Source: a virus
Taxonomy: Duplodnaviria; Heunggongvirae; Uroviricota; Caudoviricetes
Virus record (IMG/VR): IMGVR_UViG_2703718835_000004
Length of the DNA stretch: 10,170 nucleotides
Direction: 5' to 3' (one strand)
The position numbers and the translations under genes were made by a program. Numbering within the stretch: the stretch's first letter is position 1; each line of letters opens with the position of its first letter. The notes under the pieces were generated by a model. That model ran no database searches. It was not told where the DNA came from and saw only the letters and a list, made by a program, of their open reading frames with translations. This document shows, in pieces, positions 1 to 10,170 of this stretch.

Positions 1-521
1 TCTGAGTCCGTCACATTGTTCAGCGACAGGTCTGCACAGATGATTTCATGTGTGTTACTGTCAACGGCGAGATGCAGCTTACGCCAGATACGGCGGCGTT
101 CCTGGCCATGCTTTTTGACTTTCCACTCGCCTTCACCGAAGACCTTCAGCCCGGTGGAATCAATTACCAGGTGTGCGATTTCACCCCGGGTGGGCGTTTT
201 GAAACTGACATTAACCGACTTTGCCCGCCTGCTGACACAGCTGTAATCCGGGCAGCGTAGCGGAACGTTCATCAGAGAAAAAATGGAATCAATAAAGCCC
301 TGCGCAGCGCGCAGGGTCAGCCTGAATACGCGTTTAATGACCAGCACAGTCGTGATGGCAAGGTCAGAATAGCGCTGAGGTCTGCCTCGTGAAGAAGGTG
401 TTGCCGACTCATACCAGGCCTGAATCGCCCCATCATCCAGCCAGAAAGTGAGGGAGCCACGGTTGATGAGGGCTTTATTGTAGGTGGGCCAGTTGGTTAT
501 TTTGAACTTTTGCTTTGCCAC
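1..521 (-). CDS. IS903-family DDE transposase, N-terminal ~173 codons (3' part of the gene lies outside the window)
   Basis: Uninterrupted minus-strand frame from a GTG at 521-519 to the window edge; an in-frame TTG further upstream is an alternative start. It is absent from the ORF track because there is no stop codon inside the window. Translation is typical of IS903-group transposases. Confidence 0.8.
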   Translation of the reverse strand, partial: MAKQKFKITNWPTYNKALINRGSLTFWLDDGAIQAWYESATPSSRGRPQRYSDLAITTVLVIKRVFRLTLRAAQGFIDSIFSLMNVPLRCPDYSCVSRRAKSVNVSFKTPTRGEIAHLVIDSTGLKVFGEGEWKVKKHGQERRRIWRKLHLAVDSNTHEIICADLSLNNVTDS

Positions 522-598
522 GGAACGGTCTGCGTTGTCGGGAAGATGCGTGATCTGATCCTTCAACTTAGCAAAAGTTCGATTTATTCAACAAAGCC
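1..598 (-). mobile_element. IS903-family (IS5 family) insertion sequence, terminal ~600 bp including one 18-bp inverted repeat; the rest of the element lies beyond the window start
   Basis: Positions 581-598 (gatttattcaacaaagcc) are the reverse complement of the IS903 terminal inverted repeat GGCTTTGTTGAATAAATC. The adjoining ~500 bp closely resembles, with a few substitutions, the IS903 arm that flanks aph(3')-Ia in Tn903-derived kanamycin cassettes, as I remember it. A minus-strand reading frame runs from 521 to position 1 with no stop and translates to a DDE transposase N-terminus (VAKQKFKITNWPTYNKALINRGSLTFWLDD...). Confidence 0.85.
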
Positions 599-949
599 AC
601 TTCAATCTACAAAATTGAGCACATCACTGTTGGCAAGCCAGGATCTGAACAATACCGTCATGCTTTCGAGCTTGCCGATCAGCTTGGTTTAAAACACCCG
701 GATTGCATCGAGCATGTATTTCCGACCTATGCTGATGAGCAATGTACTCATGTCCTTACCGAAGAGGATTTTTTCAGCACTGAAGAACGAGAAGGCGTTG
801 ATCGCTGCATTGGTGTGATTTGCTCTTCAGTGAGTTATGAGTTATTCCCTAATGTCCATGAAAATGGTGGTATTGGATACCAATTCCTGTACGAAGGCGA
901 TGAGCTTAAATGTTATGAACATGGTCTTCTTATCGAAAGCGTAGAATAA
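599..949 (+). pseudogene. 3' remnant (~116 codons) of a gene truncated by the IS903-family insertion; function unknown
   Basis: Frame 2 is open from the IS boundary to a TAA at 947-949 and contains no ATG; the first internal GTG would give only ~45 aa. The frame continues back into the IS inverted repeat, as expected if the IS was inserted into a pre-existing gene. Translation (...HITVGKPGSEQYRHAFELADQLGLKHPDCIEHVFPTYADEQCTHVLTEEDFF...GGIGYQFLYEGDELKCYEHGLLIESVE) has protein-like composition, and a hairpin terminator follows. Confidence 0.45.
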
Positions 950-962
950 TACCCTTCCTTCC

Positions 963-986
963 AACCGGCTATGTTGGCCGGTTTTT
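963..986 (+). terminator. Putative intrinsic terminator of the truncated upstream gene
   Basis: Stem aaccggc (963-969) pairs with gccggtt (977-983) around a 7-nt loop, followed by a T run (982-986), 14 bp after the TAA at 947-949. Confidence 0.4.
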
Positions 987-1010
987 CACTTATCCACATT
1001 ATCCACTGGG

Positions 1011-1068
1011 TAGATCCAATAATTAGGTCCATACAGATCCCAATTAGATCCATATAGATCCCTGATCG
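1011..1068. repeat. Cluster of five GATC (Dam) sites in heptamer-like repeats (AGATCCA/AGATCCC)
   Basis: GATC at 1013-1016, 1036-1039, 1047-1050, 1057-1060 and 1064-1067. P1 oriR is known to need Dam methylation of such a cluster. Confidence 0.75.
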
Positions 1069-1106
1069 TTGCAGGCCGCGCCACGTCTGGCTTAGAAGTG
1101 TATCGC

Positions 1107-1189
1107 GATGTGTGCTGGAGGGAAAACGATGTGTGCTGGAGGGATAAAAATGTGTGCTGGCGGGATATAGGATGTGTGCTGACGGGAAA
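1107..1189 (+). repeat. incC-type iterons: four direct 19-bp RepA-binding repeats
   Basis: GATGTGTGCTGGAGGGAAA (1107-1125), GATGTGTGCTGGAGGGATA (1128-1146), AATGTGTGCTGGCGGGATA (1149-1167) and GATGTGTGCTGACGGGAAA (1171-1189), spaced 21-22 bp apart (two helical turns). Confidence 0.9.
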
Positions 1190-1245
1190 GCCTGGGTAGT
1201 TATCACCACTTATAAAAACTATCCACATAATTCGGAAAAAGTAAT

Positions 1246-2106
1246 ATGAATCAATCATTTATCTCCGATATTCTTTACGCAGACATTGAAAGTAAGGCAA
1301 AAGAACTAACAGTTAATTCAAACAACACTGTGCAGCCTGTAGCGTTGATGCGCTTGGGGGTATTCGTTCCGAAGCCATCAAAGAGCAAAGGAGAAAGTAA
1401 AGAGATTGATGCCACCAAAGCGTTTTCCCAGCTGGAGATAGCTAAAGCCGAGGGTTACGATGATATTAAAATCACCGGTCCTCGACTCGATATGGATACT
1501 GATTTCAAAACGTGGATCGGTGTCATCTACGCGTTCAGCAAATACGGCTTGTCTTCAAACACCATCCAGTTATCGTTTCAGGAGTTCGCTAAAGCCTGTG
1601 GTTTCCCCTCAAAACGTCTGGATGCGAAACTGCGTTTAACCATTCATGAATCACTTGGACGCTTGCGTAACAAGGGTATCGCTTTTAAGCGCGGAAAAGA
1701 TGCTAAAGGCGGCTATCAGACTGGTCTGCTGAAGGTCGGGCGTTTTGATGCTGACCTTGATCTGATAGAGCTGGAGGCCGATTCGAAGCTCTGGGAGCTG
1801 TTCCAGCTTGATTATCGCGTTCTGTTGCAACACCACGCCTTGCGTGCCCTTCCGAAGAAAGAAGCTGCACAAGCCATTTACACTTTCATCGAAAGCCTTC
1901 CGCAGAACCCGTTGCCGCTATCGTTCGCGCGAATCCGTGAGCGCCTGGCTTTGCAGTCAGCTGTTGGCGAGCAAAACCGTATCATTAAGAAAGCGATAGA
2001 ACAGCTTAAAACAATTGGCTATCTCGACTGTTCAATTGAGAAGAAAGGCCGGGAAAGTTTTGTAATCGTCCATTCTCGCAATCCAAAGCTGAAACTTCCC
2101 GAATAA
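1246..2106 (+). CDS. repA: RepA plasmid replication initiator (P1-type iteron-binding initiator), 286 aa
   Basis: 286-aa ORF flanked on both sides by its own iterons. The length and the N-terminal sequence (MNQSFISDILYADIESKAKELT...) match my recollection of phage P1 RepA. The stop codon overlaps the first downstream iteron. Confidence 0.92.
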   Translation: MNQSFISDILYADIESKAKELTVNSNNTVQPVALMRLGVFVPKPSKSKGESKEIDATKAFSQLEIAKAEGYDDIKITGPRLDMDTDFKTWIGVIYAFSKYGLSSNTIQLSFQEFAKACGFPSKRLDAKLRLTIHESLGRLRNKGIAFKRGKDAKGGYQTGLLKVGRFDADLDLIELEADSKLWELFQLDYRVLLQHHALRALPKKEAAQAIYTFIESLPQNPLPLSFARIRERLALQSAVGEQNRIIKKAIEQLKTIGYLDCSIEKKGRESFVIVHSRNPKLKLPE

Positions 2107-2236
2107 GTGTGTGCTGGAGGGCAGCTGCATTTGAAAAATGTGCGCTGCCGGGAATGCCTGCCCATTTTCCTGTTTTTGGTGTGCGCTGGAGGGTTGCGCC
2201 ACGCAGTTTGCCCAGACATTCCCTCCAGCACACATC
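2105..2236. repeat. incA-type iteron cluster downstream of repA (three direct, one inverted)
   Basis: Iteron cores at 2106-2121 (AGTGTGTGCTGGAGGG), 2138-2154 (ATGTGCGCTGCCGGGAA, degenerate) and 2178-2193 (GGTGTGCGCTGGAGGG), plus an inverted perfect copy at 2221-2236 (ccctccagcacacatc, reverse complement of GATGTGTGCTGGAGGG). Confidence 0.8.
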
Positions 2237-2258
2237 TAATAGCCTCATCGCCATTTCT

Positions 2259-2322
2259 TTACGTGCAATAATTTACGCACGAATCAAAATAAGTTGCACG
2301 TAGCAGAATCAAACGTACAATT
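2259..2322 (+). promoter_or_regulatory. parAB promoter with overlapping inverted-repeat operator
   Basis: Candidate sigma70 promoter with -35 TTGCAC (2294-2299) and -10 TACAAT (2316-2321), 16-bp spacer. A perfect 9-bp inverted repeat, TACGTGCAA (2260-2268) and TTGCACGTA (2294-2302), overlaps the -35. Type Ia ParA proteins are known to autorepress through such operators. Confidence 0.5.
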
Positions 2323-2345
2323 CACTCATACGAAATGATAAGGAG

Positions 2346-3557
2346 ATGATGATGAAACGCGATTACGGCGGTGTCGGCACCATAGCTCTTCGTGCAAGCG
2401 CATTACTTAAGGCCATGAGTCAGGATATTGAAGATCAGCGCAAAGAGTTCAATCAGACCGAGTATTATCAGACGTTCACTCGTAACGCTGTGGCAAAGTT
2501 GCCGAAGCTGAGCCGCCGCATTGTGGAGCAGGCCATCAAAGAGATGGAAGATGATGGGTACCAGTTCAACAAGAAACAGGTCGGTAACGTTGAACAGTAC
2601 GCGCTGACCATCCAGAACGTCATTGATATCTATGCCCACCGTAAGATCCCAAAATATCGCGACATTCACAAATCGCCTTACGTTATTTTTGTCGTAAACC
2701 TGAAGGGTGGCGTATCCAAAACGGTTTCCACAGTCACGTTGGCGCACGCTCTGCGTGTGCATCAGGATTTACTGCGTCACGATCTGCGCATTCTGGTAAT
2801 TGACCTTGACCCTCAGGCATCCAGCACAATGTTCCTCGACCATACTCACAGTATTGGTTCCATCCTGGAAACCGCCGCGCAGGCGATGCTGAACGACTTG
2901 GACGCGGAGACGCTACGCAAAGAGGTGATTCGTCCGACCATTGTTCCTGGCGTAGACGTGATTCCAGCCTCTATCGACGATGGCTTTGTTGCCAGCCAAT
3001 GGAAAGAGCTGGTTGAAGAGCATCTTCCCGGACAAAATCAGTACGAAATCCTTCGACGCAATATCATTGATCGTGTTGCTGATGATTATGACTTTATCTT
3101 TATTGATACCGGTCCACACCTGGATCCGTTCCTGCTCAACGGTCTGGCGGCCAGCGATTTGCTGCTTACCCCTACCCCACCAGCCCAGGTTGACTTCCAC
3201 TCAACACTGAAATATCTCACCCGTCTGCCAGAAATGCTGGAGCAACTGGAGGAGGAAGGCGTAGAACCGCGTTTAAGCGCCAGCATTGGTTTTATGTCGA
3301 AGATGACCGGCAAGCGCGATCACGAGACATCACACAGCCTTGCGCGTGAGGTTTACGCCAGCAACATTCTGGACTCTTCTCTGCCTCGTCTGGATGGATT
3401 TGAGCGATGCGGCGAGTCTTTCGACACCGTAATCAGTGCCAACCCGCAATCGTATCCAGGCAGTGCAGAGGCGCTGAAGAAGGCACGAACCGAGGCCGAG
3501 CGTTTCACTAAGGCTGTGTTTGATCGAATTGAGTTTGTTAGGGGTGAGGCGGCATGA
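2346..3557 (+). CDS. parA: ParA partition ATPase, type Ia (P1/P7 family), with N-terminal regulatory extension
   Basis: Deviant Walker A motif KGGVSKT (residues 120-126, nt 2703-2723) after a ~100-aa N-terminal extension; overall clearly similar to, but not identical with, P1 ParA as I recall it. Three consecutive ATGs at 2346-2354 follow an AGGAG at 2341-2345, so the real start is probably the second or third ATG (2349 or 2352). Confidence 0.92.
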   Translation: MMMKRDYGGVGTIALRASALLKAMSQDIEDQRKEFNQTEYYQTFTRNAVAKLPKLSRRIVEQAIKEMEDDGYQFNKKQVGNVEQYALTIQNVIDIYAHRKIPKYRDIHKSPYVIFVVNLKGGVSKTVSTVTLAHALRVHQDLLRHDLRILVIDLDPQASSTMFLDHTHSIGSILETAAQAMLNDLDAETLRKEVIRPTIVPGVDVIPASIDDGFVASQWKELVEEHLPGQNQYEILRRNIIDRVADDYDFIFIDTGPHLDPFLLNGLAASDLLLTPTPPAQVDFHSTLKYLTRLPEMLEQLEEEGVEPRLSASIGFMSKMTGKRDHETSHSLAREVYASNILDSSLPRLDGFERCGESFDTVISANPQSYPGSAEALKKARTEAERFTKAVFDRIEFVRGEAA

Positions 3558-4519
3558 AAAAAATAGTTTCCCGTGGACGAGTGCTGGGCAAGAATAGCTC
3601 CGAGTTTGCTCGCATGCTTGAAGGCAGTGAAGGCACCAAAACCTTTACCCTAAAATCTGGCCGCCAGGCTAAATTTTTGCTTACCGTTGTGCTGAGTGGT
3701 GAGATTGAGTCGCGCACGTTCGTTGACCCGGCAGTTAACGGCCGCGATCAGTCTCTGCTCACCCCTGAGTCGGTAAGCGATATTTCCCGCACCATTAAAT
3801 TGCAACAGTTCTTCCCGGCTATCGGTCGTATGGTTGGGGAGCGCATTGAGGTATTGGACGGATCACGTCGCCGCGCTGCGTGTATCTTCAATGAAACGAA
3901 ATTTGAGATTCTGGTGACGAAAGATGAGATCAGCCTGGCGGATGCACGCCAGCTGGCCATTGATATCCAGACAGCCCGCGAACACACCCTGCGCGAACTG
4001 GGTAAACGCTTCGAGGTTATGTATGGTAAGAGCATGACCAAAGAAGAGATCGCCCGCGCTGAGAACATTTCAAAGGCTAAAGTTACGCGCGCGTTCCAGG
4101 CGGCAGCGGTGCCGGATGAGATGATTGCTGTCTTCCCTGTTGCCAGCGATCTCGCCCTGCCAGATTACCAGTTACTGCTCCAGATCTCCGAGGATGCCAA
4201 CGCTAAAAGCGTGCCTATTGAAGAGCTGGTTGATACGGTGCGCGAACGAATTGCAGAGACTGAGGGCGCGAAAGAGGATAAAGCGAAGATACTGGCTATC
4301 TTCAAAGCGGAAAGCAAAAGCCTGAAGCCCGCGCCGGTTAAATCTGTGGTGGTTGAGAAGCTGCGAGACTTCTCTGACCGTCGCCAATATGCTCGAAAGA
4401 AGTCCGATCCGAAAAAACGGGTTGTCGCCTACGAGTTCTCCAGACTCCCGTCTGAAGTGCAAACTGAAATTGACGAAGCAATAAAAAAAATCATTGGGAA
4501 AATGTCTGCTGGGGAATAA
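3554..4519 (+). CDS. parB: ParB centromere-binding partition protein (P1/P7 family), 321 aa
   Basis: Start codon overlaps the parA stop (ATGA at 3554-3557), implying translational coupling. Sits between parA and a parS-like site; conserved stretches (GRDQSLLTP, ILDGSRRRAA, AKVTRAFQAA) resemble P1 ParB. Confidence 0.9.
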   Translation: MKKIVSRGRVLGKNSSEFARMLEGSEGTKTFTLKSGRQAKFLLTVVLSGEIESRTFVDPAVNGRDQSLLTPESVSDISRTIKLQQFFPAIGRMVGERIEVLDGSRRRAACIFNETKFEILVTKDEISLADARQLAIDIQTAREHTLRELGKRFEVMYGKSMTKEEIARAENISKAKVTRAFQAAAVPDEMIAVFPVASDLALPDYQLLLQISEDANAKSVPIEELVDTVRERIAETEGAKEDKAKILAIFKAESKSLKPAPVKSVVVEKLRDFSDRRQYARKKSDPKKRVVAYEFSRLPSEVQTEIDEAIKKIIGKMSAGE

Positions 4520-4559
4520 TTCCGCTGGTGGGAGGTGGTGTTAGCCCCTCCCCTTTCTA

Positions 4560-4650
4560 AAATGTCCCGCACCAATTTCATTGCTAACCTTGTGATTTGC
4601 ATGTGTTTTTTAGGAGAATTTCAGACTGAAATTCCCACGATTTAACGCCT
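4560..4650 (+). other. parS-like partition site (centromere analogue): heptamer and hexamer ParB boxes around an IHF-like site
   Basis: Right arm AATTTCAG-ACTGAAAT-TCCCAC-GATTTAAC (4617-4646) is arranged like the P1 parS right arm as I recall it. Left arm has TCCCGC (4565-4570) and ATTTCAT (4575-4581). Between them, an IHF-consensus-like AATCACAAGGTTA lies on the minus strand at about 4586-4598. Confidence 0.7.
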
Positions 4651-4703
4651 GCATTCACCGTCCACTTCCCCGCACAAAAAATTTAAAAAATTACTTTTCG
4701 CGA

Positions 4704-4733
4704 GAAAGTCAACAAGTGACTTTCAATAAAATC
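4704..4733 (+). promoter_or_regulatory. Candidate late-type promoter for the structural operon: inverted repeat upstream of an A/T-rich -10
   Basis: Perfect 8-bp inverted repeat GAAAGTCA (4704-4711) / TGACTTTC (4717-4724) with a 5-bp spacer, followed by TAAAAT (4727-4732) and no recognisable -35. P1 late promoters are known to pair a -10 with an upstream conserved element bound by the late activator in place of a -35. Confidence 0.4.
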
Positions 4734-4783
4734 TCTTCCGAAAAGGGATTCACACAAGTGCCTTGTGTTTAAGGAAGAGTAAA

Positions 4784-6490
4784 TTGAGTAACTTACGCGA
4801 ATACCAGAATCGTATTGCAGATATCGCAAAACGCTCTAAAGCTGTGCTTGGCTGGGCAAGCACTGCGCAGTTCGGTACTGATAACCAATTCATTAAAGAT
4901 GATGCCGCGCGTGCCGCATCTATCCTTGAAGCTGCACGTAAAGACCCGGTTTTTGCGGGTATCTCTGATAATGCCACCGCTCAAATCGCTACAGCGTGGG
5001 CAAGTGCACTGGCTGACTACGCCGCAGCACATAAATCTATGCCGCGTCCGGAAATTCTGGCCTCCTGCCACCAGACGCTGGAAAACTGCCTGATTGAGTC
5101 CACCCGCAATAGCATGGATGCCACTAATAAAGCGATGCTGGAATCCGTCGCAGCAGAGATGATGAGCGTTTCTGACGGTGTTATGCGTCTGCCTTTATTC
5201 CTCGCGATGATCCTGCCTGTTCAGTTGGGGGCAGCTACCGCTGATGCGTGTACCTTCATTCCGGTTACGCGTGACCAGTCCGACATCTATGAAGTCTTTA
5301 ACGTGGCAGGTTCATCTTTTGGTTCTTATGCTGCTGGTGATGTTCTGGACATGCAATCCGTCGGTGTGTACAGCCAGTTACGTCGCCGCTATGTGCTGGT
5401 GGCAAGCTCCGATGGCACCAGCAAAACCGCAACCTTCAAGATGGAAGACTTCGAAGGCCAGAATGTACCAATCCGAAAAGGTCGCACTAACATCTACGTT
5501 AACCGTATTAAGTCTGTTGTTGATAACGGTTCCGGCAGCCTACTTCACTCGTTTACTAATGCTGCTGGTGAGCAAATCACTGTTACCTGCTCTCTGAACT
5601 ACAACATTGGTCAGATTGCCCTGTCGTTCTCCAAAGCGCCGGATAAAGGCACTGAGATCGCAATTGAGACGGAAATCAATATTGAAGCCGCTCCTGAGCT
5701 GATCCCGCTGATCAACCACGAAATGAAGAAATACACCCTGTTCCCAAGTCAGTTCGTTATCGCGGCTGAGCACACGGTACAGGCGGCGTATGAAGCACAG
5801 CGTGAATTTGGTCTGGACCTGGGTTCCCTACAGTTCCGCACCCTGAAGGAATACCTGTCTCATGAACAGGATATGCTGCGTCTTCGCATCATGATCTGGC
5901 GTACTCTTGCGACCGACACCTTTGACATCGCTCTGCCGGTTAACCAGTCCTTTGATGTATGGGCAACCATCATTCGTGGCAAATTCCAGACTGTATATCG
6001 CGACATTATTGAGCGCGTTAAATCTTCTGGTGCGATGGGGATGTTTGCTGGTGCTGATGCAGCATCTTTCTTCAAACAGTTGCCGAAGGATTTCTTCCAG
6101 CCAGCCGAAGACTATATCCAGACTCCGTATGTTCACTACATCGGTACCCTGTTCGGTAACGTGAAAGTGTACGAAGTACCTGCTGGTATTTGTAAGAACT
6201 TAACGACAGAGAACATTCAGTTCAGCTCGATGGATGTGCTGTGCTACGTCCGTGATGAAAATCCGGGTAAAGCAGGCTTCGTGACTGGTGATGCTGTCCC
6301 GGCCATCCCGTTCCAGCATCCGACCACTCCGGCGCTGGTCAACCGTACCACGCTGTGGGGTTCGGCTATCAACGATATGCACCCACGCAACGGCGCTGAT
6401 TACTTCACTCGTGTAACGCTGACAATGGCCAAAAAAGGCGGGCTTAACTTTATAAGCGGCGACACGATTGATGCCGGTGACTCTGAGTAA
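4784..6490 (+). CDS. Putative major head (capsid) protein, ~568 aa; probable TTG start
   Basis: Long ORF (track 4763-6490) with no in-frame ATG for ~90 codons. The TTG at 4784 lies 6 nt after a strong AAGGAAG (4771-4777). It is the first gene of an operon immediately after parS and before the sheath gene; size (~62 kDa) and position match the P1 major head gene next to par, from memory. Function is inferred from synteny and size only. Confidence 0.5.
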   Translation: MSNLREYQNRIADIAKRSKAVLGWASTAQFGTDNQFIKDDAARAASILEAARKDPVFAGISDNATAQIATAWASALADYAAAHKSMPRPEILASCHQTLENCLIESTRNSMDATNKAMLESVAAEMMSVSDGVMRLPLFLAMILPVQLGAATADACTFIPVTRDQSDIYEVFNVAGSSFGSYAAGDVLDMQSVGVYSQLRRRYVLVASSDGTSKTATFKMEDFEGQNVPIRKGRTNIYVNRIKSVVDNGSGSLLHSFTNAAGEQITVTCSLNYNIGQIALSFSKAPDKGTEIAIETEINIEAAPELIPLINHEMKKYTLFPSQFVIAAEHTVQAAYEAQREFGLDLGSLQFRTLKEYLSHEQDMLRLRIMIWRTLATDTFDIALPVNQSFDVWATIIRGKFQTVYRDIIERVKSSGAMGMFAGADAASFFKQLPKDFFQPAEDYIQTPYVHYIGTLFGNVKVYEVPAGICKNLTTENIQFSSMDVLCYVRDENPGKAGFVTGDAVPAIPFQHPTTPALVNRTTLWGSAINDMHPRNGADYFTRVTLTMAKKGGLNFISGDTIDAGDSE

Positions 6491-6516
6491 TCAGGGGAAG
6501 TTCTCCGTTTAACATA

Positions 6517-6534
6517 GCGCCCCGTGCGGGGCGC
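6517..6534 (+). other. GC-rich hairpin between the head and sheath genes (no U tract)
   Basis: gcgcccc (6517-6523) pairs with ggggcgc (6528-6534) around a gtgc loop, 27 nt after the stop of the head gene; the following sequence is not T-rich, so it is not a classic terminator. Confidence 0.4.
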
Positions 6535-6549
6535 ATAACAGGGAAAGTT

Positions 6550-8139
6550 ATGTCTCAATATTCAATTCAACAGTCATTAGGTAATGCATCCGGTGTCGCT
6601 GTTAGCCCGATCAATGCCGATGCGACGTTATCTACCGGTGTTGTATTAAATAGCAGCTTGTGGGCAGGTATTGGTGTATTTGCGCGTGGCAAGCCGTTTA
6701 CTGTTCTTGCGGTTACTGAGTTCAATTACGAAGATGTTCTCGGCGAACCGCTGAAGCCGTCCTCCGGCTCACAGTTCGAACCAATTCGCCATGTGTACGA
6801 AGCTATTCAGCAAACGTCTGGTTATGTTGTCCGTGCTGTTCCGGATGATGCGAAGTTCCCGATTATTATGTTCGATGAATCAGGCGAACCGGCTTACAGT
6901 GCGTTGCCATACGGTTCTGAAATTGAACTTGATAGCGGCGAAGCCTTTGCTATCTACGTTGATGATGGTGATCCGTGTATTTCTCCTACCCGTGAGTTAA
7001 CCATCGAAACGGCAACAGCGGACAGCGCGGGTAATGAACGCTTCCTCTTAAAACTGACCCAGACGACTTCGCTCGGTGTGGTAACGACCCTGGAGACACA
7101 CACTGTGTCTTTGGCGGAAGAAGCGAAAGATGACATGGGCCGCTTGTGTTATCTGCCTACGGCTCTGGAAGCCCGTTCTAAATATCTGCGCGCGGTTGTT
7201 AATGAAGAGCTGATTTCGACGGCGAAAGTAACAAATAAAAAATCGCTGGCGTTCACTGGCGGTACCAACGGCGATCAGTCGAACATTTCCACTGCTGTTT
7301 ACCTGCGTGCGGTGAAAGTGCTGAACAATGCGCCGTACATGTACACCGCTGTTCTCGGCCTGGGTTGCTATGACAATGCGGCGATCACTGCGTTAGGTAA
7401 TATCTGTTCTGATCGCTTGATTGATGGCTTCTTTGATGTCAAACCGACATTGACGTACACGGAAGCGATCTCTGCTGTTGAAGATACCGGTTTACTTGGT
7501 ACCGATTATGTAAGCTGTGCTGTCTATCATTTCCCGTTCTCCTGCAAAGACAAATGGACCCAATCCCGCGTGGTCTTCGGTCTGTCTGGCGCGGCGTATG
7601 CGGCGAAAGCTCGTGGCGTCAAGAAAAACTCCGATGTCGGCGGTTGGCATTACTCACCGGCTGGTGAAGAACGTGCCGTCATTGCTCGTGCATCACTTCA
7701 GCCGCTGTATCCTGAAGACACCCCGGACGAAGAAGCTATGGTCAAGGGCCGACTCAATAAAGTATCTGTAGGTACTTCGGGCCAGATGATCATCGATGAT
7801 GCTTTAACTTGCTGCACGCAGGACAACTATCTGCATTTCCAGCACGTCCCATCCCTGATGAACGCAATCAGCCGTTTCTTTGTCCAGTTAGCCCTACAGA
7901 TGAAGCATAACCCGGACGGCATTACTGAGTCTGGCCTGACTAAAGGGATGACCAAACTTTTGGATCGCTTTGTCGCCTCCGGCGCTCTGGTGGCTCCTCG
8001 TGATCCTGATGCTGACGGTACAGAACCGTATGTGCTGAAAGTTACGCAGGCGGAATTCGATAAATGGGAAGTAGTCTGGGCCTGCTGCCCGACTGGCGTA
8101 GCCCGTCGTATCCAGGGCGTACCGCTGCTTATTAAGTAA
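6550..8139 (+). CDS. Contractile tail sheath protein, 529 aa
   Basis: The central/C-terminal region carries a pattern I recognise from myovirus sheath proteins such as P2 FI (...AFTGGTNGDQSN...AVYLRAV..., ...AAYAAKARGVKKNSDVGGWHYSPAG...). Size (~57 kDa) and position directly after the head gene are consistent. Confidence 0.7.
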   Translation: MSQYSIQQSLGNASGVAVSPINADATLSTGVVLNSSLWAGIGVFARGKPFTVLAVTEFNYEDVLGEPLKPSSGSQFEPIRHVYEAIQQTSGYVVRAVPDDAKFPIIMFDESGEPAYSALPYGSEIELDSGEAFAIYVDDGDPCISPTRELTIETATADSAGNERFLLKLTQTTSLGVVTTLETHTVSLAEEAKDDMGRLCYLPTALEARSKYLRAVVNEELISTAKVTNKKSLAFTGGTNGDQSNISTAVYLRAVKVLNNAPYMYTAVLGLGCYDNAAITALGNICSDRLIDGFFDVKPTLTYTEAISAVEDTGLLGTDYVSCAVYHFPFSCKDKWTQSRVVFGLSGAAYAAKARGVKKNSDVGGWHYSPAGEERAVIARASLQPLYPEDTPDEEAMVKGRLNKVSVGTSGQMIIDDALTCCTQDNYLHFQHVPSLMNAISRFFVQLALQMKHNPDGITESGLTKGMTKLLDRFVASGALVAPRDPDADGTEPYVLKVTQAEFDKWEVVWACCPTGVARRIQGVPLLIK

Positions 8140-8148
8140 GGAAATACA

Positions 8149-8964
8149 ATGAGCAAAAACTTTTTTCAATCCGGGGCATTTTTGGGGAATGGACTGTCTC
8201 GTTTCGCTTTGAACTCTGATCTTGTGCAGTTGATGGAGTCTGCCCGAGCAAGCGCCGAACCGACAATAGATCCGGTTATTAATAATAATCCGGAACCGGC
8301 GGCACAGACTAACGATAATGCTCCATCTGCCACGGCTCCTGAGCAAATCCTGGAAGGGAAAGACGGTAAAGAATGGACCGTCGAACAGGCGCACCAGATG
8401 ATTCTGGAAGCTGCAAATCGAAGTGCTATGCAGAATGCGTTGAGTGATGCGGCCGACGCCGTTTTCGCCTGGGCTGATAGCGGTGATCTGACTTTCGACT
8501 CCCTTGATGGTTTCGTTCAGGCTATCGCTGGTATCTCTGATGACGACGACTCCGAAGTTACAGAAGAACAGGACGATGCCTATAACGAAGCATGGGCAAA
8601 TGTTGCTGACTTCCTCGCAGCATGCGGTGTAGATGATGACCTGATCGAAGCACTGGCTGACGATGAAGACGACGACGCAGCTGCTGATGTTGGTGCCTCT
8701 ATCGCTGGTTTAGATAGCGACGACCGCGACGAACTGGAAGCGGCGTTTGTTGTTGCTGGCACTTCTGATGAAATGCTGACTGAAGCATTTAAGAAGGTTG
8801 TTCGTAACGGTGAGATCAAACTCATCCGTAAACGCCTGCGTAAAAAACGTCTGACTGCGGCTCAAAAATCGGCGCTGAAAAAAGCGCGTCGAAAAGCCCA
8901 GACCGGCGCGGCAAAACTTGCCCGCAAAAAGTCAATGAAACTGCGCCGTAAGCGCCTTGGCTAA
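8149..8964 (+). CDS. Hypothetical virion-module protein, 271 aa, strongly acidic body with a highly basic C-terminal tail
   Basis: ATG at 8149 lies 5 nt after AAGGAAA. The body contains acidic runs (DDDDSEVTEEQDD, DDEDDDAAAD, DSDDRDELE); the last ~56 residues contain about 26 Lys/Arg (LIRKRLRKKRLTAAQKSALKKARRKAQTGAAKLARKKSMKLRRKRLG). No family recognised. Confidence 0.7.
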   Translation: MSKNFFQSGAFLGNGLSRFALNSDLVQLMESARASAEPTIDPVINNNPEPAAQTNDNAPSATAPEQILEGKDGKEWTVEQAHQMILEAANRSAMQNALSDAADAVFAWADSGDLTFDSLDGFVQAIAGISDDDDSEVTEEQDDAYNEAWANVADFLAACGVDDDLIEALADDEDDDAAADVGASIAGLDSDDRDELEAAFVVAGTSDEMLTEAFKKVVRNGEIKLIRKRLRKKRLTAAQKSALKKARRKAQTGAAKLARKKSMKLRRKRLG

Positions 8965-8990
8965 AGGAGGAGGCCGGAGAACTCCGGCCT
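8965..8990 (+). promoter_or_regulatory. Shine-Dalgarno sequence separated from its start codon by a stable hairpin (split ribosome-binding site)
   Basis: AGGAGGAGG at 8965-8973 follows the upstream stop; a hairpin at 8971-8990 (7-8 bp GC-rich stem, loop gaac) precedes ATG 9000. There is no SD within 5-12 nt of the ATG, and an in-frame TGA at 8997-8999 rules out an earlier start. Confidence 0.4.
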
Positions 8991-8999
8991 TTAACTTGA

Positions 9000-9581
9000 A
9001 TGGCTCCTATAGCTTATGGGGTTTACAGCCAGGCTGACGGTGTATCGCCATATCTGAAAGTTACTTTAACGAACTCTCAGTACCAGGTTACCGGATATAT
9101 CAGCCAGGGAGCGGCAATGAACATGGCCCAGAATTGGGAAGCGCCGTTTACCGGTATGTCCATGGGATCTGTTTCTGGTGCTCTGGGTGGTTTTGTGCAA
9201 GTAGGTACTGAAACAACGTCGGTTGCCCGTTGGAATAGCTTAATGGTTTGGGAAGGGGGGACTCCGCCGACGTTCACGCTGCCTGTAACTTTCATTGCTT
9301 TGAACAATCCATTCATTGAAGTTTCAGGCGCTATCGCCGCGTTGACAGCCATGATTAGCCCGGAACTAAAAGCGGCCAATGTTGGTGGTCGAATCCCGGA
9401 GCGCGTGACGCTAAACATTGGTCGCCGGATCAACATCACCGATGTCGCCATCCAGGACTTAAGTTTTGATCTCGATGCGCCAAGGGACAGTAATGGATAT
9501 TTCCTGAAAAACACCGTCAACCTCCAGTTGACCGGTTCTTCGATATATAACAGCTCCGATATTGTTCGGGCGTTCCAGTAA
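9000..9581 (+). CDS. Hypothetical phage structural protein, 193 aa (tail tube or other tail component is possible)
   Basis: Co-directional ORF in the sheath operon with protein-like composition; size (~21 kDa) fits a tail-tube-class protein, but no motif was recognised. Confidence 0.6.
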   Translation: MAPIAYGVYSQADGVSPYLKVTLTNSQYQVTGYISQGAAMNMAQNWEAPFTGMSMGSVSGALGGFVQVGTETTSVARWNSLMVWEGGTPPTFTLPVTFIALNNPFIEVSGAIAALTAMISPELKAANVGGRIPERVTLNIGRRINITDVAIQDLSFDLDAPRDSNGYFLKNTVNLQLTGSSIYNSSDIVRAFQ

Positions 9582-9592
9582 AAGGATTTTAT

Positions 9593-10102
9593 ATGGGGCA
9601 CAATAACACTAAGGGAAACCGTAAATTTATTAAGGGCCGCTATACTGCCAACGCGGCCAAAGGCGAACGACTGGTATCTTCTGAATTCCAGCTCACTTTT
9701 GCAGGCCATGAAGATATCAGCGTACTGGTTCGTACGTCGCAAATCCCTGAAATGACTCGAGAGAATGTGGAGGACTATGGTCCGAATGGTGTGAAGTTCA
9801 ACCAGCACGGACCAATTCGAAACTCTGGGGAAATCCAGGTCCAGTGCGTGGAGACTATCGAAGGCGATATTCTTCAGTTCATTAAGGATCGCATTGCGGC
9901 GAAGGACTATGTTGATATCACGATGGCTGCTACCCCTGAATCCAAATCTTCCGGGGTTAACGCTGTGACAAAAGCTGCTACAACAATTGAAATGTTGGAC
10001 TGCAAAATCTACAGTGATGCAATCGACTTTAGTACCGAAGATGTGACTGCCGCTGTGCGCCCGTCACTTCGTATCGTCTACAACTGGATTGAGTGGGATT
10101 AA
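9593..10102 (+). CDS. Hypothetical phage structural protein, 169 aa (tail-associated candidate)
   Basis: ATG at 9593 lies 5 nt after AAGGA (9583-9587), 11 nt after the previous stop; the gene is followed by a strong intrinsic terminator, as expected for an abundantly expressed structural gene. Confidence 0.6.
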   Translation: MGHNNTKGNRKFIKGRYTANAAKGERLVSSEFQLTFAGHEDISVLVRTSQIPEMTRENVEDYGPNGVKFNQHGPIRNSGEIQVQCVETIEGDILQFIKDRIAAKDYVDITMAATPESKSSGVNAVTKAATTIEMLDCKIYSDAIDFSTEDVTAAVRPSLRIVYNWIEWD

Positions 10103-10121
10103 GAGTCATCCCTTGTATTTT

Positions 10122-10148
10122 AAAGCTCCTTCGGGAGCTTTTTTATTT
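10122..10148 (+). terminator. Rho-independent terminator with a UUCG tetraloop
   Basis: Stem aaagctcc (10122-10129) pairs with ggagcttt (10134-10141) around loop ttcg, followed by a T run (TTTTTTATTT, 10139-10148), 20 nt after the TAA at 10100-10102. Confidence 0.85.
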
Positions 10149-10170
10149 GGAGTGACCCGTCCTGAATAGC

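Follow-up and report, generated by a model that had tools for sequence, protein, structure and literature searches.

An IS903-type element apparently joined recently and precisely within upfA of a P1-derived plasmid segment, at a bond also used elsewhere

Introduction

What is the insertion sequence (IS) whose end stands just to the left of a P1-type replication origin in Escherichia coli, how did it come to be joined there, and does it bring cargo with it? The DNA analysed, referred to below as the window, is 10,170 bp long and is, base for base, the entire contig LONV01000081.1 of assembly GCA_001576295.1. This assembly is listed as E. coli G186 (PMC9638481). A sequence-only reading had recognised an IS903-family element at the left edge and had proposed that it might be one arm of a composite transposon bracketing cargo. 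The interpretation favoured here, to which we would give a probability of about 80%, is that a single copy of a known IS903/IS903B element was joined precisely, and very recently, within upfA. The IRL end of IS903 would have been joined by transposase at the phosphodiester bond between upfA codons 14 and 15; the target would have been a dispensable gene to the left of oriR in a P1/P7-derived plasmid segment of strain G186, and the join would have left oriR, repA, incA and parAB untouched.

Results

The element at the left edge of the window

Nucleotides 1-598 belong, on the minus strand, to an IS903/IS903B-isoform insertion sequence of which 598 of approximately 1057 nucleotides are present, the remainder being cut off by the contig edge. 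Over its full length this stretch matched more than 5000 plasmid records with identities of up to 98.7%, the RefSeq label under these matches being 'IS5-like element IS903B family transposase', and it was 97.7% identical to the annotated IS903 of phage HK022. Among the 5000 best-scoring plasmid records there was no copy identical to window 1-598 (best 98.7%). A transposase frame runs on the minus strand from a GTG start at 521-519 through 173 codons to the contig edge without meeting a stop (3-521). Its product, the N-terminal part of an IS5-family DDE transposase, matched NCBIfam NF033579 (IS5-family transposase; 1.9e-62, 211 bits against a cut-off of 140) and Pfam PF13737 (7e-40) and PF01609 (1.2e-10), all with residues 1-173 only. 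By the convention of ISfinder, isoforms share at least 95% nucleotide identity with the named element. The terminal repeat, the IS5-family DDE transposase and an identity of at least 95% to a named isoform were all found, and the element is an ordinary, already known IS903/IS903B isoform of the IS5 family and not a new kind. With IS903/IS903B it has in common the 18-bp terminal repeat and the transposase N-terminus (97.7-98.7% over 598 nt); it is present over 598 nt only, full copies elsewhere being 1057 bp long.

The 18-bp terminal inverted repeat, GGCTTTGTTGAATAAATC, reads from 598 to 581 on the minus strand (581-598), and this is the one end of the element that lies within the window. In a scan of IMG/VR contigs the same 18-mer was found at both ends of complete 1057-bp copies with flanking 9-bp duplications; therefore position 598 is a genuine IS terminus, in agreement with the inverted repeat that the sequence-only reading had placed there. 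Perfect 9-bp direct repeats flanked 15 of the 21 unique full IS903 copies in this sample, and the other 6 (~29%) had none. The sequence just inside the 18-mer is of the IRL type, that is, the end at which the transposase gene starts, as judged by its match to the left end of the complete copy in plasmid ET220 (L002).

When compared with other IS903 copies the variants of the window element form a mosaic, with clusters, for example, at 378-399 and 405-452, and one variant (position 569) lies within the extended IRL region. Such clustering suggests either that IS903 variants have recombined or that the draft assembly presents a blended sequence; a draft contig that reaches 598 bp into a repeat could have as its consensus a mixture of several IS903 copies.

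The junction with upfA and the adjoining replicon

From base 599 onwards the DNA is of P1/P7 type, and base 599 is the first base of upfA codon 15. Translation against the P1 annotation identifies a truncated gene, upfA' (599-951, plus strand), comprising codons 15-130 and the stop, the start and the first 14 codons having gone. Upstream the upfA' frame meets a TAG at 569-571, and no in-frame ATG, GTG or TTG occurs before 815. The truncation, which had been reported from the sequence alone as affecting the neighbouring gene, probably inactivates upfA. The alanine codon 14 of intact upfA loci reads GCA or GCG in all 25 relatives with an intact gene, and GCC in none of them; it follows that C598 is contributed by the IS, as its outermost base. 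The join is exact, as would be expected of a junction made by transposase.

Beyond the junction the replicon is spared, as had been proposed. oriR (970-1211, plus strand; mapped from the P1 annotation) is intact, with tandem DnaA boxes at 990 and 999 (990-1007), five GATC sites between 1013 and 1067, and incC iterons from 1109. The distance from the IS end to the DnaA boxes, previously given as about 400 bp, was measured as 391 bp. repA (1246-2106, plus strand) is also intact and encodes a protein of 286 aa that is 100% identical to P1 RepA (tblastn). With an oriR that carries DnaA boxes and iterons, and with RepA and ParAB, the window has the components of P1-type replication and partition, and it matches the replicon of the P1/P7 plasmid prophage in its order upfA-oriR-repA-incA-parAB as well as in DnaA boxes, GATC cluster and iterons. 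It differs from P1 in its divergent par genes, shorter incA and truncated upfA, and in that the segment is bounded by IS elements. ParA and ParB share 58% and 43% identity with their P1 counterparts and are identical or nearly so to those of many P1-like plasmids; in an exact-protein look-up the RepA, ParB and gp22 alleles of the window proved to be common. The interval between repA and parA (2107-2345) is 240 bp long with four recognisable iterons; in P1 it measures 558 bp and nine iterons are annotated. These comparisons show a shortened incA and par genes that are not of P1 type. The P1-like DNA of the contig amounts to approximately 9.5 kb only.

Contig status and records of the junction

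At the right edge, P1-like homology ends at 10152 in most relatives, and the last 18 nucleotides (10153-10170, plus strand) are the first 18 nt of an IS3-family element. The same 18 nt run on, in L024, into a gene with an rve domain; the L033 contig stops 2 nt later. The contig is bounded by repeats at both ends, IS903 on the left and an IS3-family element on the right, and the sequence breaks off inside an IS because a repeat present in several copies defeated the short-read assembly. Where a window opens inside an IS it may, as here, represent a whole contig, and extension to the left is then impossible.

A 201-nt query across the junction found no covering record in PLSDB or among complete E. 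coli genomes, and a 41-nt junction pattern had no match in GTDB species genomes, IMG/VR or JGI metagenomes. Similarly, with window 1-2200 as the query no record of the phage collection linked the IS903 and P1 parts, and the 60-aa ORF that spans the junction had no exact match on record. The 114-aa truncated UpfA, when read with its native Ile start, matched exactly only in contigs that begin at positions equivalent to 603-605, and in a collection of this size we took these to be contigs that happened to break there; when read with a Met start, its only exact match was LONV01000081.1 itself.

Age of the event and close relatives

Against near-identical contigs the window carries a specific non-synonymous SNP at nt 8267, a rare allele that produces T40I in the 271-aa gp21 protein. 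One sister contig, L158, has the same rare gp21 allele together with an intact upfA, and across window 588-10150 it shows a single difference, at base 598. It is clear that the event is very recent, since this sister contig with intact upfA differs at 598 only. The other relatives with intact upfA (L024-L033) are 2-9 SNPs from the window over 7.9 kb. The junction arose after the split from otherwise identical isolates.

The closest complete relatives, L024-L026, are plasmids of approximately 75 kb, of which 21.6 kb were examined. In this stretch the P1 segment is bounded by IS elements, beyond which lie glycosyltransferase genes. The phage-plasmid backbone of the sequence-only reading thus stands only in part: the DNA is P1/P7-derived, but the 21.6 kb of the relatives show the arrangement just described, and the P1/P7-type replicon in this lineage is part of an IS-rich mosaic plasmid. 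Past the P1 rep/par/structural segment, L024-L028 carry IS elements and glycosyltransferase, manC-like and gnd-like genes (for example, L026 16595-21590), which look like a polysaccharide-synthesis cluster on a P1-derived replicon.

In other sister isolates that share the rare gp21 allele, a terminal repeat of Tn1721/Tn21 type lies within repA, at the equivalent of window position 1577 (L156 ~3390-3429; L160 1-29; the start of L161). In L156 the repeat is followed by Tn1721 tnpA-like DNA and by genes of the EamA and MFS families. This plasmid lineage can evidently do without the P1-type repA.

A second join at the same bond

The intact target, ATCAACAAAGC(A/G) followed at the bond by ACTTCAATC, resembles the IS end, TTCAACAAAGCC, with 10 of 11 bases in agreement directly against the joined bond. 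Because of this 10/11 match, 588 and not 599 is the position at which BLAST alignments with intact P1-like plasmids begin; the counterparts of window 588-598 in intact relatives are, for example, L158 1277-1287 and L001 2501-2511. The calculated chance of a 10/11 tip match on either side of a given site is approximately 1.6e-5.

Furthermore, two complete plasmids of E. coli from frogs in Shantou, ET220 (NZ_CP100983; L002 4964-6019) and ET650 (NZ_CP100937; L013 10964-12019), carry IS903B at the same upfA bond. In both, the IS tip is followed by ACTTCAATC, the bond is identical to that in the window, and the P1/P7-type backbone is 99.66% identical. The IS itself lies in the opposite orientation, so that IRR meets the junction; it is frameshifted and shares 97.3% identity with the window IS; its left flank is inside an IS3-family element and there is no 9-bp duplication. 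The backbone of these plasmids is 25-31 SNPs from the window clade over 7.9 kb, and the other members of the clade have an intact upfA. The two joins are independent, because homologous recombination or replicative inversion would preserve the IS end at the old junction. That the window and ET220/ET650 junctions descend from one join, with the IS flipped later, was considered and rejected, the nearest relatives of the window having an intact upfA. The same bond having been used twice suggests a recurrent IS903 target. In ET220/ET650 repA has been lost, by a deletion whose ends fall within the incC and incA iterons (L002 6584-6641, against window 1164-2219).

The published IS903 target motif, WTTYA-N9-TRAAW (PMC2577343, Table 1), is matched by the window site at 7 of 10 positions, a score equalled by 2.7% of positions in a 10.8-kb relative; as the cause of recurrence the motif was rejected as too permissive. 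A general preference of IS903 for tip-like targets was looked for in 15 natural sites flanked by target duplications and was absent, their mean tip-likeness being 2.87/12 against an expected 3.0, with a maximum of 6.

Discussion

The window element is an unremarkable copy of IS903B type, placed where a draft contig ends; it disrupts a P1 gene whose function is unknown and spares the replicon. The finding matters little in itself; its sole lead is the recurrent bond beside a tip-like sequence. Of the five points that had been read from the sequence alone about the element and its surroundings, namely its IS903-family identity, its inverted repeat, its distance from the origin, the intact origin and repA, and the truncated gene, each is borne out above. 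The proposal of cargo fares differently. Tn903 is a composite transposon with the structure IS903-aph(3')-Ia-IS903, so that an arm of such a transposon, bracketing cargo such as a resistance gene, would use the same IS as its building block. The lineage is known to gain accessory DNA, as the Tn1721-type transposon of a sister isolate attests; moreover, L006 has an aph(3')-Ia cassette with an IS903 remnant, and the P1-like phage-plasmid SJ46 has an IS903-associated blaCTX-M. The geometry, however, argues against it. In the Tn903-derived locus of L006, which we used as a reference for Tn903 geometry only, IRL is the inside end, with 60 bp between its tip and the 3' end of aph(3')-Ia, whereas in the window IRL faces P1 DNA at upfA codon 15. 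Likewise, in the ISEcp1-blaCTX-M-14/27-IS903 unit of SJ46, in which an IS903-group element also sits on a P1-like backbone, IS903D is located elsewhere on that backbone, between a fragment of an iron-receptor gene and blaCTX-M-27, and the 3' end of the bla gene adjoins the IRL tip, where the window has upfA'. Two IS903 copies and cargo make up Tn903, and the window shows one copy and no cargo. At least on its visible side the element is arranged differently from both classic units, and the orientation of its visible end already speaks against an arrangement of the Tn903 or CTX-M kind. The plasmid matches, more than 5000 in number, are annotated as IS903B transposase genes, many plasmids carrying several copies, and around IS903 the closest relatives have only IS debris (a darB fragment, IS30 and IS1) in the stretch examined. 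Nothing in the window points to cargo, and we consider the arm of a composite transposon very improbable.

Less probable still, by our estimate, is a chimeric contig in which IS903 and upfA were brought together through a short shared sequence. The window is indeed a short-read draft contig with repeats at its ends, and the IS tip and native upfA have 10 nt in common. Ten shared bases, however, are far fewer than the usual assembly k-mer sizes, base 598 is that of the IS and not the native one, and the tip joined to ACTTCAATC is also present in two complete RefSeq plasmids. Base 598 also bears on a deletion made by microhomology alone, with the IS tip and the pseudo-tip as its two ends, which was rejected: it predicts the native A or G at this position, and C was observed.

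If a single IS903/IS903B copy was joined precisely within upfA, there are two main routes by which this could have happened. We infer that simple insertion, with duplication of the 9 bp ACTTCAATC (599-607, plus strand, expected from the duplication habit of IS903, the opposite IS flank being outside the contig), has slightly less than an even chance; it is supported by the 9-bp duplications at most natural copies (15/21). The opposite flank of the IS would then read ...ATCAACAAAGCAACTTCAATC up to the bond and GGCTTTGTTGAATAAATCAGATTTCGGG after it, and upfA codons 1-17, ppfA and mlp would have been kept. Alternatively, and with a somewhat smaller though still substantial chance, an IS903 copy already resident 3,036 bp upstream made an intramolecular adjacent deletion without duplication. 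L024-L026 have such a copy at this distance from the upfA target, in the same orientation as the window copy and with its IRL facing upfA, and the interval between the two holds a darB fragment, IS30 and IS1 remnants, upfB' and ppfA/mlp. Were this copy to transpose intramolecularly into upfA, exactly the junction of the window would result, with no duplication, as in the analogous junction of ET220; the IRR side would then carry the left flank of the resident copy and lack ACTTCAATC. Of the 598 positions of the window IS, 16 are different in the copy upstream of upfA in L024/L026, which may itself differ from the upstream copy of the G186 lineage. These differences argue against direct descent from the upstream copy, and the mosaic clustering tempers that argument. 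What is left of the probability goes to other rearrangements.

The recurrence of the bond could be an effect of the tip-like sequence or could reflect chance together with selection for retention of oriR. The former would mean that TCAACAAAGC(A/G), the pseudo-end before the bond, steers IS903 ends of either orientation to this place. Transposase bound at the pseudo-tip might position the strand transfer, or the cleaved 3' end of the IS (...AAAGCC-OH) might anneal to the 10-nt microhomology and be extended; by either means the junction would recur and a duplication would not be required. This is what the 10/11 match at the joined bond would lead one to expect, as would the independent IS903B event of ET220/ET650 at the same bond, in the opposite orientation and, in ET220, without duplication, and the published target motif explains little of the site (7/10, equalled at 2.7% of positions). 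Against it, the 15 natural IS903 targets show no tip-likeness, the tip match was noticed post hoc and only two events are known. In addition, rearranged P1 replicons must keep oriR, so that surviving breakpoints will concentrate just to its left, where ends of other IS do stand nearby in other lineages (IS911-type and IS1, below), and no published IS903 precedent for such joining is known to us. To our knowledge the targeting of pseudo-ends has not been described for IS903 or for the IS5 family; IS911 and IS30 do insert next to sequences that resemble their own inverted repeats. On balance we regard steering by the pseudo-end as improbable, if less so than either the chimeric contig or the composite transposon. 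If true, recurrent use of the bond would add a targeting rule for IS903, and the pseudo-end would help to explain why breakpoints of P1-derived plasmids cluster just to the left of oriR.

Three further observations concern the loci compared here. The L006 locus (CP050522.1, a record of 8.6 Mb) combines P1 repA/par and repL with two APH-family genes and a methylase gene of the thiostrepton-resistance type, and resembles a cloning vector built from P1 more than a plasmid found in nature. SJ46 has Tn1721 genes and ref/cre near its IS903D. In L003, L005 and L008 (~9290-9340; contigs of 4.4-4.7 Mb) an IS end, ...GTGCCACTTCA, which from its terminal repeat we take to be of IS911 type, is joined 9 bp upstream of the IS903 site, and the native ACTTCA just downstream resembles the joined tip.

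Finally, a search with the 44-aa C-terminal UpfA ORF led to L021 (~6841-6897), in which IS1 stands directly upstream of a upfA remnant, at the equivalent of window position 625. Similarity is also lost at 625 in many PLSDB and phage matches, including phage SJ1, and this position may mark either another breakpoint that recurs or the limit of a diverged stretch.
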